A stretch of 64,000 nt of DNA from Eledone cirrhosa. Its lineage: Eukaryota. Below, piece by piece: positions 25,692-60,141 of the stretch. The notes beneath the pieces are model-generated. The model did not search any database, was not told the DNA's origin, and saw only the letters and a list, made by a program, of their open reading frames with translations. Position 1 is the first letter of the stretch. Every line of letters starts with the position of its first letter. The stretch is from positions 50,654,001-50,718,000 of the forward strand of contig OZ024746.1 in the NCBI GenBank assembly GCA_964016885.1, written 5' to 3'. Made by a program: the position numbers and the translations under genes.

Positions 25692-26362
25692 ATTAGTAAA
25701 AGGAAAAGAAAATGCTGACAAATTGTTCCCAGTGAAAAATAGTTTAATTAGGAATAAGTATAAATTAGTAATAAGTATTGGTTAGTATTCAGTTTTAGTT
25801 TTAAGTTTTTACCTGTTGCGTATTTCTAATGCTTTTCAAAAATAATTTTGAGATAGAGCGCTCGTGATGTTTGCTCTAATCTGATCAGTTTTGGAATTCT
25901 TCCTGTTTTATGTGGAAAAAGTGGCTCCAGAGGTATTAAGATTTGGTAATTTTTAACATTCACGTGACCTCTACCGACCAATCAAAATTGTTTTGACTAC
26001 AAGAATTTTTGCAACACGAATTGGCGCAAAATTTATAGTACTCATTCACTTGACATTCAACAACCAACCAAATCTTAATACCTCTGGAGCCACTTTTTTT
26101 CACATAAAACAGGGAGAATTTCCAAAACTGATCAGATTAGAGCAAACATCACGAGCGCTCTATCTCAAAATTATTTTTGAAAAGCATTAGAAATGCGCAA
26201 CCGGTAAAAACTTAAAACTAAAACTGAATACTAATCAATACTTATTACTAATTTATACTTATTCCTAATTAAACTATTTTTCACTGGGAAAAATTTGTCA
26301 GCATTTTCTTTTCCTTTTACTAATATATCACAACTCGCGTGTTACACCTCTATTTTTTTAAA
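25692..26362. repeat. Fold-back of a TA-bounded repeat family (arms ~255 bp), with further copies at 36870-37165, 42804-42990 and 51275-51495
   Basis: 25692-25948 is the reverse complement of 26066-26323. Each copy carries the variant HHR-like motif TTGAAAA-GCATTagaAATGC-GCAACCGGTA. Confidence 0.9.
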
Positions 26363-26406
26363 TATATATATATATATATATATTTAAAAAAATAGAGGTG
26401 TAACAC

Positions 26407-28087
26407 ATGCTAGACAAACATGCTAGACAAACACTACTGGAATTTCAAAAAGAATACTGGACCAGAAACACATATAGTAATCTATTCGACATTACTATGG
26501 GCTCAAGTGATTCTGCCCAAATTACCGATCTTGTGGGCCTCTTTCTTCTATTTAACATAAATGCTTCTTTTCCCCACCTTAAAGGTGGTTTATATCGTGA
26601 CGACTGTCTTCTTCTTTCCAATAACCTTAGCCTATGAGAAATTGAAAAGAATAAAAAACTTATTAGAACTTTCCTCAAAGACTATTATAGTCTAGATATT
26701 ACATTTGAAAACACAAGTAAAGTAGTTAATTTCCTTGATATAACATTAGACTTATCTACGTGTATCTACCAACCTTACCATAAACCTAACCAAAACTTAC
26801 ATTACATACACTCACAATCTAATCACCCTAAATCTATCCTTAAAAACCTAGCATATAATATCTCACTCAGAATGTCTAACCTTTCGTCTAACCAGGATGT
26901 ATTTGATAAAAATGGGACCTTTTATAACGAAGCTTTAGCTAGAAGTGGCCACAAAAACAAATTAGTATATATACCTTGTACCAATAACACTACAAACATA
27001 CAACCCAATATTACCAACAAACACCAAATGAAATATACACACCTAAATGCCACTCACACTATATCCCAAAATACCAACATAAAACTTAATTTCTCTAACT
27101 CTTCTAATATACAATATAGTAACTTCAAAAAACTATTCATCCTAATACTCCAATATATGTTAATAATAAAATTCCTAATAAACAGGCTAAAACACCTAAA
27201 TCAATGAATCTAACTAAAAATATGTGTAATAAAATCATTAACAATAATTCTCTTTATAAACATCAGGATACATCCTATAAAAATAATAAACAACATCGAA
27301 ACCGTAATAGACGAGTTACTTGGTATAATGCTCCATTTAATCTACAAATTAAAGATAATATACCTAAAAAATTTTTTTTACTATCCTAGAGAAAAACTTC
27401 CCGCCAAACCACAAATACCATCAAATTTTAAATAGATCAACGGTTAAATTCTCCTACTCAACAACCAAAAATATACAACAAAATATAAGTGCCTATAATG
27501 CATATAAATGTAAAAAAACCATGAATATACCACCAATACAACAAACTAACCATAATACTAAAATAAACCACAGCAAACCACCATCTCATTCACATACAAC
27601 AAGTCGTGAAAATTCCACACCTAATTTGACTATCTCCTCTGATACAGCATTCACGAAAGGTTGTAACTGTAGAAACAAAGCAAATTGCCCATTAAAAGGA
27701 AATTGCCTTATTAATAACATAGTATATAAATGTAAAATTAACACTAAGGACTCAACTTATTCATATATAGGAGCTACTTCTAACCAATTTAAAGTAATAT
27801 TTAATACCCACAAACACAGTTTTAAAAATGCCGCATTTGCTAATACAATATCTTTAGCTGAAATAATTAATAATTATAGAAAAAGGAATATAGATTATGA
27901 CCTGACCTGGAGGGTGCTCAAAAGGGCCACCCCTTATCAAAATAATAGATATGAATGTAGATTATGTTCCCAGGAACTTTTTGAAATAATGAAATCTAAG
28001 GATATCCTATTAAATAAACGACAGGAATTAATTATATCATGTGATCATAAATTGAGAAGAACTTTTAAATATTACAAACCTAATTAA
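26407..28087 (+). pseudogene. PLE-1: 5'-truncated Penelope-like RT + GIY-YIG endonuclease ORF (Hydra-clade-like), with stops and frameshifts
   Basis: FDITMGSSDSAQ, GGLYRDD, VVNFLDITLD, SNHP, VTWYNAPF, CNCRNKANC (CxCx5C), IVYKC...YIG, CRLC, LLNKRQE. Confidence 0.92.
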
Positions 28088-29012
28088 TATACACTTTAGA
28101 AATTATTATAATAACACTTTTTTTTTTTTTTTTTTTTTTTAAAATTAGTTAACCTATAATTAATATTCTACTACTAATGAACTGCATAATTTTATTTCCC
28201 TGTTACAGCTATCTTTTCCTAAAATTTATACCAATAAGTATACATATAAACTATTTTAATTTCTATATTCCTTATAATCTATATAAATTTGTTATTTCTC
28301 ACTAATAAATTTACCCCCCCCCACAATAATTATTATTATTATTTTTTTATTTTCTCTTCGTTTTTAACAGCACTCTTCAATTACATCTAACTCTTATTTA
28401 TCATATCTATATGAATTAATATAAATTTATCAATATAAATATACCTATCAATTTAATTTATTTATTTTCTTTTTATAGATGTAAATTCCCTATATTTTAA
28501 ATAAGATTGATATTTTTCACTAACACATTTATCGTAAAATTTTATTCTCCTTAGATATTTACATTAGCATTATTCTTTTATAACATCAATTTTTCGTGTA
28601 CCTTTTACCGACTTGACCTATTTTCATCCCTAAAATAATCTTTTGATTCATCATACTCTTTCCATTCAAAACTGAAATCTGCTTTCCTCTACCCCTAAAT
28701 TAAAGTTCTATTACTACTATTCTTGACCACTTACTACCTTTCTATTGGTCAATTCAAAACCTGTTCCCAAACAGACCTATTATATTAAATCTTTGTTGGT
28801 TTTTTTTCAATAAACAAATATCATTATTTCTGAAGACAGCATATATATGTGTAGGTATGTATATTCCCTCTGATAGTTTGTAAAAATTTTACATAGATCT
28901 ATATGATATACATACCAACACAAACATATATATCCTTGAAACGATCGTAAAATGATGAATTTTTTAATATAAGGAACTGTTTCTTTGTTTTTATTCATTA
29001 TTTTTATTAATT
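28088..29012 (+). mobile_element. PLE-1 3' UTR / terminal repeat ending in (TA)n
   Basis: T-rich UTR containing an HHR, homologous to 30960-31080 and 33790-34085. Confidence 0.8.
28821..28958 (+). ncRNA. Type I hammerhead ribozyme with ~100 nt stem II
   Basis: tcattattt-CTGAAGA-[catatatatgtgt..ggtatgtatat ... atatacatacc..acatatatat]-GAAAC-GATC-GTA-aaatgatga. Confidence 0.8.
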
Positions 29013-29046
29013 TATATATATATATATATATATATATATATATATA

Positions 29047-29232
29047 ATTGTTTCTACTTTTGGATCAAGGCCAGCAATTACCCAGTGCATTACTGGTACT
29101 TTATTTTATCGACCCCGTAAGGATGAAAGGGCAAAGTTAACCTTGGCGGGATTTGAACTCAGAATGGCAAGGGCCGTAACTCTATGCGTCAAAGCATGGC
29201 GTCCGACCCTCTACCGATACTGCCAATCCACC
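29047..29232 (-). mobile_element. SINE family A inserted in a (TA)n run
   Basis: Full consensus. Confidence 0.9.
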
Positions 29233-29290
29233 TCCCTATATATATATAATGAATAGAAATAACCAGGATTAAATTACATTAAATTATTTA

Positions 29291-58325: not shown

Positions 58326-58676
58326 GGTGACTTCTAACAGTAAATATCTCAACTACGGGAGCTCAAGTATACACAGTTCAAGAGTAACCAATCTTAAAGA
58401 GAGAGATGGAGATAGGAGAGGATATATGAGAGGAGAGATTGGTGAATTAGTTAGAAGCCAAAGCGTAAAGGCATGTGCTCAATGTGCAATATGCAGTAGA
58501 AAGCAGCTAGGTGGCTGGGTTCATGCAGCAGTTAGGTGCGCAGAGCTGGAAATATTCATTAGTTAAGCAAAACAAGACCACAAATTTCACAAGGAAGACA
58601 TTATTAAAAGATTGTCAACATATTTTAGTTTGATGTAAGGAATGTAGAGAATAATAATAATAATATTAATAATAAT

Positions 58677-58862
58677 TGTTTCTACTTTAGGCACAAGGCC
58701 AGCAATTACCCAGTGCATTACTGGTACTTTATTTTATCGACCCCGTAAGGATGAAAGGCAAAGTCAACCTCGGCGGGATTTGAACTCAGATCGTAAAGGG
58801 ACGTAACTATGCTGGAAAGCATGGCGTCCGACCCTCTACCGATACTGCCAATCCACCGCCTT
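58677..58862 (-). mobile_element. Young SINE family A inserted in one PLE-4 terminal repeat
   Basis: 19-bp TSD taataatattaataataat (58658-58676, 58863-58881), empty site at ~55535-55565. Confidence 0.95.
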
Positions 58863-58888
58863 TAATAATATTAATAATAATAATGTCC

Positions 58889-59008
58889 GTTTACAATTGT
58901 TTCGCTACTCCATATAATATTTCTGGATCAGATGACTATATATCATAATTGATCTGGTTCAGTTGAAAATAATTAACATATTTAAAAGACAGAGCGGCTC
59001 ATCGGAAC
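58889..59008 (-). ncRNA. Hammerhead in PLE-4 terminal repeat, CCGAUGA core, ~95 nt stem II (second copy ~55570-55688)
   Basis: gtt-CCGATGA-gccgctc...gagtagc-GAAAC-AATT-GTA-aac. Confidence 0.65.
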
Positions 59009-59099
59009 TTCAAAGGAATATAAATTAAAATAATGAGATAATGTTACATAATATAATGTTCCATATATTGGTTTTTACTATGGTGTCTTGGTTGCTTTT

Positions 59100-60141
59100 A
59101 CATACATGCACACATATATACATGTACGTATGGATTCACCGAACATTTATTATAATGCTCGGTGTGTTTGTAAACAAACATCCCGAATTAAGCCGTACAG
59201 TGTCTAGCAACCATCGTAAATTGCGTAATAGATGTATACCAACTTAAGGAAGGTAAACTTAAGGACGGAAACAAGCAAAGAAACAGCAGAGAAGAAAAAA
59301 TGTGTTTATAATTTTGTTTTTGACTCAGAGGCAAACGAGGCAGCATGTTCTTATTATGTATCTGAGTCATATATATATATATATATATATATATATATAT
59401 ATATATATATATATATATATATATATATATATATAATATATATATACATATATATATATAAGTATGTATACGTACATACATATATGTATACAGACGTGGG
59501 TTAATCGGCCGGGTGCACCAAAAACGACAAACGGAAAAAATGAAACGAAATTTCATTTCTCACTCTTAGTACGGCTGTTACTTAAATATAAGTATGTATA
59601 CGTACATACATATATGTATACAGACGTACAGTAGTATGTATATATATATACATACATGCACACATATATACATGTACGTATGGATTCACCGAACAGTTAT
59701 TATAATACTCGGTGTGTTTTCGGTACCCCGGCCGATTAACTCACTCGATATGCAAATTAGGCTGCTTAGCCGTTAATATGCATAAGGAAAGTATATACTT
59801 TCAGACGTTCAACCATGTGCCAGGAAGTTATACGTTGCTGACGATAGCTGGTGGGCTTGAGGCTGGTACAGCGTTCTTTTGTCAGTGTTGAACAAATGAG
59901 CAACGATGGTTGCTAGACACTGTACGGCTTAATTCGGGATGTTTGTTTACAAACACACCGAGCATTATAATAAATGTTCGGTGAATCCATACGTACATGT
60001 ATATATGTGTGCATGTATGTATATATATATACATACTACTGTACGTCTGTATGCATATATGTATGTACGTATACATACTTATATTTAAGTAACAGCCGTA
60101 CTAACAGTGAGAAATGAAATTTCGTTTCATTTTTTCCGTTC
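59100..60141. repeat. Direct and inverted copies of another TA-bounded repeat
   Basis: 59101-59216 and 59530-59720 pair with 59904-60141. Confidence 0.85.

Follow-up and report, generated by a model that had tools for sequence, protein, structure and literature searches.

Penelope-like elements (PLEs) of the Hydra and Neptune clades and the non-coding retrozymes of animals are the closest described systems to the elements reported here. The present analysis examined a window of 64,000 nucleotides from Eledone cirrhosa (assembly GCA_964016885.1, contig OZ024746.1, positions 50,654,001 to 50,718,000, forward strand), in which the interval 25692-60141 contains PLEs and hammerhead ribozyme (HHR) motifs; coordinates below are those of the window. 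The elements of the interval have in common with Hydra-clade PLEs (Craig et al. 2021, PMC8557442) a C-terminal endonuclease (EN), the RWK and DKT motifs, a CxCX5C linker, and CxxC and CxH without CCHH, and also a (TA)n target, an HHR near the 3' end and a frequent 10.1-11.1 mismatch. The Hydra HHRs listed in that paper are compact and have canonical cores, with one octopus family, whereas the present locus has many families, with stem II as long as ~117 nt and U4A, U4C and C3·A8 cores. Tails are also longer, at ~80-120 nt here compared with 30-40 in the published Hydra clade.

The Neptune PLEs with minimal HHRs (Cervera and De la Peña 2014, PMC4209133) share with the locus a CXnCxxC linker, a CCHH EN, a minimal or palindromic stem III, an extra base before stem II, the U3-A8 variant and a 2-bp helix I, for which the Drosophila virilis PLEs provide the precedent; family M of this study differs from them in carrying A13C in addition. 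Metazoan non-long-terminal-repeat (non-LTR) retrozymes (PMC7229834; bioRxiv 10.64898/2026.07.22.740005) are similar to the non-coding families described below in consisting of 300-550 bp tandems with one type I HHR per unit, in low GC and in co-occurrence with PLEs. The PLE insertion anatomy seen here is additional to the evidence in the published work consulted on them, which comes from co-occurrence and trees. Non-autonomous Chlamys elements such as MRC1 (PMC8557442) are non-coding, are inserted head to tail and are mobilised by PLEs, as is proposed here. However, these elements are green-algal, belong to a clade mostly without HHRs, and have 3' ends in common with an autonomous partner.

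Most of what was found is known biology, namely Hydra and Neptune PLEs and non-LTR retrozymes, and HHR-bearing Hydra PLEs that target (TA)n have already been published, octopus included. The supplement of PMC8557442 gives a (TA)n preference and an HHR for Hydra-1_Obim of Octopus bimaculoides, and thus the autonomous part was already known. As far as the literature searches reach, what appears to be new is the scale of the population, retrozyme-like units that show PLE anatomy, the families that carry their own target and the fixed core variants, of which U4A and A13C were not searched. Searches on octopus with hammerhead or Penelope, most subscription journals being outside them, found only PMC8557442 to be directly on HHR-bearing octopus PLEs. 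For U4C in hammerheads one paper was found, and in the consulted part of a 2026 octopus repeat annotation (PMC13282606) the word "ribozyme" occurs 0 times.

The interval is very likely a stack of independent (TA)n insertions of Hydra and Neptune PLEs and of short non-coding tandem HHR elements, the latter likely copied by PLE reverse transcriptase (RT) and EN. In the mechanism proposed, the GIY-YIG EN would nick (TA)n, and the RNA would have two internal sites at which reverse transcription can begin, each used on one of the target strands, so that inverted pairs with a short and a long end would arise. Multimers of the tandem non-coding families would be cleaved by their HHR to monomers, which may circularise and then be copied into arrays of more than one unit. 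In families with an open reading frame (ORF), cleavage is probably dispensable, and the drift of their cores (U4A, U4C, C3·A8, A13C) may be due to this. Clustering would track (TA)n density, helped by families with a (TA)n tract of their own.

Insertion anatomy and non-coding tandem units

Families are designated by letters and are listed in Table 1. DNA searches of the genome were made for 11 families, with up to 40 candidates scored for each and 9-30 loci fetched, which were picked by likeness to the window copy. First-look candidates numbered 1027 for A, 590 for B, 9 for C, 2108 for D, 2872 for E, 1359 for F, 1942 for G, 2469 for H, 1838 for I, 1720 for J and 2583 for M.

In the window, family ends adjoin (TA)n or continue into a fixed tail. 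The flank tallies bore out, for most families, the earlier proposal that ends are enriched at (TA)n genome-wide. For example, (TA)n was next to the end in D (22/24), PT (17/21) and the tailed ends of G (63/66) and L (16/18), and in family A it was next in 23 of 40 ends, the family tail being next in the other 17. As controls, the 3' end of a short interspersed element (SINE) was at (TA)n in 1 of 59 cases and random positions in 6.2%. Family F, with its query set ~10 nt short, scored 0/24 under the (TA)n rule; a direct look shows TA or the tail there. Across families there are two alternative 3' ends, one short and one with a tail of 37-120 nt, 5' truncation and inversion are seen, and the HHR motifs sit 20-150 nt inward of the ends.

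In the non-coding family H, TA adjoins the right end in 21 of 23 loci, and in inverted insertions with two termini an end at q264 was paired with an end at q380 (short and long) in 14 of 14. Published PLE anatomy includes an inverted 5' copy and a tail at one end only (PMC8557442, Fig. 2 legend), and for an anole PLE the tail is reported to correspond to the stretch that separates two internal start sites of the RT (PMC11167929). Since the TA ends, the 5' inversion and the pairing of short and long ends in H match this anatomy, we conclude that PLE machinery probably copies H. The tandem units might instead be spread by an RTE-type long interspersed element (LINE) or as DNA satellites, and an RTE-like element does also end at (TA)n (47461) and is frequent in the fetched flanks. 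This is very improbable, however, as the pairing of two kinds of end in H, together with its inversion, is a PLE signature, and the arrays, which are short, are scattered among many contigs. The question of what mobilises animal retrozymes can thereby be put to the test, since H combines a non-coding unit and its HHR with precisely the insertion features of PLEs and is found next to candidate driver enzymes.

The preliminary description, made by a model from the window sequence alone, had considered the HHR-only ends possibly non-autonomous and retrozyme-like. An EN domain was found upstream of the motif on the same strand in A (16/34), J (11/27), F (10/23), C (2/27), L (2/19), the E/K cluster (4/54, all in loci fetched with E) and eight copies of G, and a Neptune-type EN was upstream in 5 of 24 loci of M. 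Thus, the window pieces of these families, K excepted, are 5'-truncated ends of ORF-bearing families, and for C, E, F, G and M the earlier assignment does not stand. Non-autonomous retrozyme-like families do exist in H, I and PT, which form head-to-tail units of ~530 bp in H and ~475 bp, up to six units, in PT, and a ~550-bp periodicity with partial tandems at several loci in I. Each of these tandem non-coding units contains a type I HHR. The longest ATG-started ORF of H encodes 53 aa, no Hydra ORF is continuous with H, and no ORF link was found for H, I or PT in the 1.5-kb flanks of the fetched loci, the sole case of H with EN being an insertion beside a Neptune piece in locus L080. Also, no ORF link was found for family B in fetched loci. 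It is scarcely credible that every HHR-only piece is a truncated autonomous PLE end and that there are no non-autonomous families. This does hold for C, E, F, G and M, but H, PT and a 310-bp family occur head to tail without an ORF in up to six units, which contradicts it for H and PT, and I has its own periodicity.

The 310-bp HHR unit is absent from the window (L310:4700-6650, L237); three near-identical units and three inverted units end at (TA)n, and it is the cleanest retrozyme-like array seen. More tandem HHR units of ~467 and ~446 bp were noticed (L247, L268, L186, L246), and the ~467-bp unit is related to PT and has compensatory changes in its stems.

Ribozyme motifs, core variants and covariation

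Seven matches in the window were obtained with a descriptor for type I HHRs that had the core C[TC]GANGA and allowed a stem II of as many as 130 nt, whereas 100 block shuffles gave a mean of 0.11 and a maximum of 1. A slightly widened descriptor gave eight matches inside 25692-60141 and none across the remaining 29.6 kb: 28821, 31881, 33871, 42438, 43294, 51872, 58889 and a site not listed before, 53441 on the minus strand. A first, stricter descriptor found only three motifs because it required the 10.1-11.1 pair. HHR-shaped sequence was present at each of the 11 coordinates named in the preliminary description. Seven of these pass the type I descriptor (core boxes, three helices and NUH site), and four are copies of HHR families in which the motif is damaged or variant: 29291 has mutated stems I and III, 54966 has a 21-nt deletion in stem II, 49584 has a C3·A8 core, and 37280 is a minimal motif with an intact core and a stem I of just 2 bp. 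In other genomic copies of the 29291 and 54966 families the motif is complete. Further variant or damaged motifs were found in family L (47278 and 48736), in family M and at 59838.

All of the palindromic loops reported earlier for stem III (GATC, GCGC, ATAT, ACGT, AATT) are there. The stem sequences had also been called unrelated, which is overstated because 31881, 42438 and 53441 have a common stem I and stem III sequence; in addition, 28821 and 33871 are a single family, and 42438 and 53441 group in one cluster (E/K). A U4C core is present on the minus strand at both 43294 and 58889. The GAAA partner of the HHR at 51872 is the GAAA at 51929; a 7-nt insert between stem I and core, considered for H and J, was dropped, as the correct GAAA and register remove it. 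No hammerhead was among the Rfam matches listed (150 of 318), which are microRNA, snoRNA and viral untranslated region (UTR) models on simple repeats and hairpins. Beyond the interval, an HHR-like motif with a U3-A8 core was seen at 9539 on the minus strand.

Core tallies were counted over distinct contexts, with F, J and G copies picked by likeness to the window, and the numbers are small. Cores were canonical in H (40/47), PT (20/22), I (12/17), A (24/26) and D (10/10). Variant cores characterised five ORF-linked families and none of the tandem families seen: U4A (CAGAAGA) in L (21/22), U4C in F (9/10) and J (15/17), C3·A8 in G (13/17, with U3-A8 in diverged copies), and U3-A8 with A13C in M (29/29), where GCAA replaces GAAA in 21 of 24 and three were unparsed. 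U3-A8 is a known covariation, and U4C reduces activity yet is viable in a viroid (PMC3088659).

The covariation expected across copies if the stems were real was found in H, in the PT group and in stem I of I. Among six H-type sequences, 98.6% of cells were paired with seven double changes (reached in 1 of 500 shuffles), and eight PT-group sequences had 13 double changes (0 of 500) with slid controls far lower; the members of both sets were picked for their divergence, and relatedness is not taken into account by the shuffle. The young families are too uniform for a covariation test.

The HHR motifs could mostly be dead relics; in that case template jumping by PLEs would spread the tandem families as well, and neither self-cleavage nor circles would be needed. 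For example, the very abundant families L, M and O have non-canonical or eroded cores, HHR mutants of the anole PLE left in vitro insertion unaffected (PMC11167929), and folding support is weak. However, canonical cores are kept in the tandem non-coding families, their stems have compensatory changes, and U3-A8 covariation is seen in G, M and other clusters, so that we consider relics a rather unlikely explanation. The role of PLE hammerheads becomes testable from the core variants fixed in successful ORF-bearing subfamilies versus the canonical cores of the tandem non-coding ones.

Several results weigh against the reading of stacked insertions of PLEs and of non-coding tandem elements copied by them. 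First, family B ends at TA in just 5 of 17 cases. Secondly, the covariation sets were small and selected as stated. Third, single-sequence folding gave a complete three-way junction in 0 of 10 motifs, the z score was below -2.5 only for A, I and E among them, and competing hairpins appear in the folds of H and G, although the H monomer fold does beat shuffles (z -2.96). In addition, the ORF-link result for H, I and PT reaches only 1.5 kb into the flanks, and no autonomous partner with sequence common to H, I or PT was found in the fetched loci. Lastly, a protein search of the genome gave 46,537 first-look candidates, of which 104 were scored and 11 examined; the longest open frames among those scored were 725-727 aa with the N-terminus missing, and 0 of the 11 examined copies had a full-length intact ORF.

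Genome-wide scale and the standing of the locus

A grid sample of eighty 10-kb stretches, 61 of them on the four largest contigs, was taken from the 3.0-Gb assembly. It contained 67 motifs (shuffles 2.4) in 51 independent insertions and 27 clusters; cluster 16 of the motif clustering, an AT-rich tandem at one locus, was a false positive and was left out of the 67. The extrapolated genome total was 251,000 motifs (172,000-341,000), or 274,000 (192,000-370,000) when stratified. This exceeds the 126,247 HHR motifs reported for the 28.21-Gb axolotl genome (PMC7229834), and would be an approximately 20-fold higher density, approximate because the descriptors differ. The genome may thus hold the densest known HHR population, of ~250,000 in dozens of families. 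In it, retrozymes with circular RNA would be inserted at (TA)n by the enzymes of Hydra PLEs, certain elements would bring new target sequence with them, and cleavage would persist in the non-coding passengers but be relaxed in the autonomous drivers; we regard this wider picture as plausible but a little short of probable.

The locus itself had been proposed as a self-reinforcing niche, and part of this stood. Family F has (TA)15-80 at a fixed 3' UTR position in 17 of 17 copies reaching there, a family-C piece is nested in that tract in locus L128, and a PT subfamily has a (TA)n tract within each unit. Thus, feedback exists for some families, but an internal tract is absent from A, C, J and L and from seven of the eight G copies. 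That the interval is a special self-reinforcing hotspot is also suggested by its motif density, which at 23 per 100 kb is 2.8 times the grid mean of 8.4, and by its three Hydra coding regions within 34 kb, compared with 16 over 800 kb. However, the probability of at least eight motifs in 34 kb is ~0.05 even before window selection, and 8 of 80 grid stretches, those with at least three motifs, are denser. Other families are enriched 1.55-fold near a copy (17.7 vs 11.4 per 100 kb), equal to the enrichment of (TA)n itself (159 vs 104), and the SINE is not enriched. The claim of an exceptional niche was therefore not upheld, and a hotspot is quite unlikely.

Motif count was correlated with (TA)n count (rho 0.54), and the 200 kb adjoining the window contained 26 motifs. 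Very TA-rich arrays are not always colonised, as loci L325-L327 (C6:50.79-50.82 Mb) have 141-253 (TA)8+ tracts per 10 kb and only 0-2 insertions of the window's families.

Coding elements and catalogue of the interval

Four PLE ORFs had been claimed; four PLE coding regions do exist, but all are interrupted or truncated. By their clade motifs and by comparison with the published alignment, three are Hydra-clade PLEs and one is Neptune-like. The Hydra-type regions (26.4-28.1, 44.3-46.4 and 56.1-58.4 kb) are 35-47% identical to one another, and each has a YRDD RT followed by a C-terminal GIY-YIG EN, for which the Pfam match was weak and in one region (E 0.084). RWK is present in ORF 3, and DKT was seen in ORF 2 as well as in copies of ORF 3 elsewhere in the genome, while ORF 1, being truncated, does not extend to either motif. 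All three EN pieces have the CxCX5C linker, CxxC and CxH and no CCHH, in a by-eye comparison with the PMC8557442 alignment, and the ORFs of the window show a resemblance to Hydra-1_Obim. The 37.2-39.7 kb region, whose Neptune placement was judged by EN motifs, has a CX2-5CxxC linker and CCHH in a C-terminal EN, as does the family M ORF. The Hydra RT was missed in searches of Pfam, NCBIfam and PDB. Hydra element 2 has a 140-bp internal duplication in its 3' UTR (46918-47194).

The ORF at 47462-48487 (minus strand) was rejected as a PLE; it matches RVT_1, and we take it to be an RTE-type LINE. The 3' end of this fragment adjoins (TA)n, and 80-90% identical copies lie beside PLE ends in loci L155 and L216.

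Table 1. Elements of the interval 25692-60141, with further pieces of each family
Element	Position	Strand	Further pieces	Description
Family M	25694..26361	.	36872-37165, 42806-42987, 51275-51494	Inverted pair of Neptune-type PLE 3' ends; HHR remnant with U3-A8 core and A13C; ~37-nt tail
Hydra-clade PLE 1	26440..29012	+		5'-truncated, broken; RT end and GIY-YIG EN to 28087; 3' UTR up to (TA)n
HHR family A	28821..28958	+	33796-34086 (second copy, core 33881)	CUGAAGA core; ~100-nt stem II; stem III CGAUCG; stem I 9 bp
Family B	29249..29819	-		Older (80-87%); HHR end, core 29356, damaged in window
Family C	31757..32057	-		Hydra-type 3' ends as inverted pair; HHR core 31942; tail on one end
Family D, Neptune-like PLE	37194..39739	-		Frameshifted; minimal HHR 37280-37320, core intact, stem I 2 bp
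Family E	42380..42680	-		Hydra-type family, truncated 3' end; HHR core 42496
Family F	43271..43920	-		Hydra-type 3' end 43610-43271, U4C HHR core 43412, and inverted copy with tail
Hydra-clade PLE 2	43940..47443	+		ORF pieces 44348-46355, 5' copy inverted; 3' end is family L, U4A HHR core 47278
Family L, further ends			48581-49195, 53571-53724	
Family G	49544..49691	+	43069-43254, 50102-50294, 51526-51659, 54421-54540	Hydra-type 3' end; HHR C3·A8 core (U3-A8 in diverged copies), long palindromic stem III
Family H	51660..53182	+		Non-coding, ~530-bp head-to-tail units, ~2.7 present; canonical HHR core 51872; predicted cut after 51942; retrozyme-like
Family K	53254..53530	-		HHR end absent from the preliminary description; core 53441; clusters with E
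Family I	54556..55183	+	54215-54335 (inverted tail piece)	Older non-coding ~550-bp unit, partial tandems; HHR core 54973, deletion in window copy
Hydra-clade PLE 3	55258..59095	-		Frameshifted ORF 58352-56063; HHR family J, U4C core 59005; pseudo-LTRs 55258-55774 and 58372-59095, the latter interrupted by a SINE-like repeat
Family PT	59101..60141	+		Non-coding ~475-bp unit; tandem elsewhere (six units in L308); window HHR core 59838 damaged

Other repeats of the window were also catalogued, and no complete HHR was found in families N, O, S and U. Family N (29854-30712) is an inverted TA-flanked repeat with CTGATGA and without a matching GAAA half. Family O (39985-40170 and 49219-49380) is TA-flanked and abundant, with 15 insertions in 800 kb, and has stem III and GAAA with an eroded CUGANGA box. 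An inverted repeat at 40680-42121, with ~635-bp arms and a GT/CA-rich expanding interior, is inserted in family S (40230-40534 / 42228-42330). Lastly, a broken LINE with a zf-RVT match lies at 61664-63931 on the plus strand, with no TA anchoring seen.

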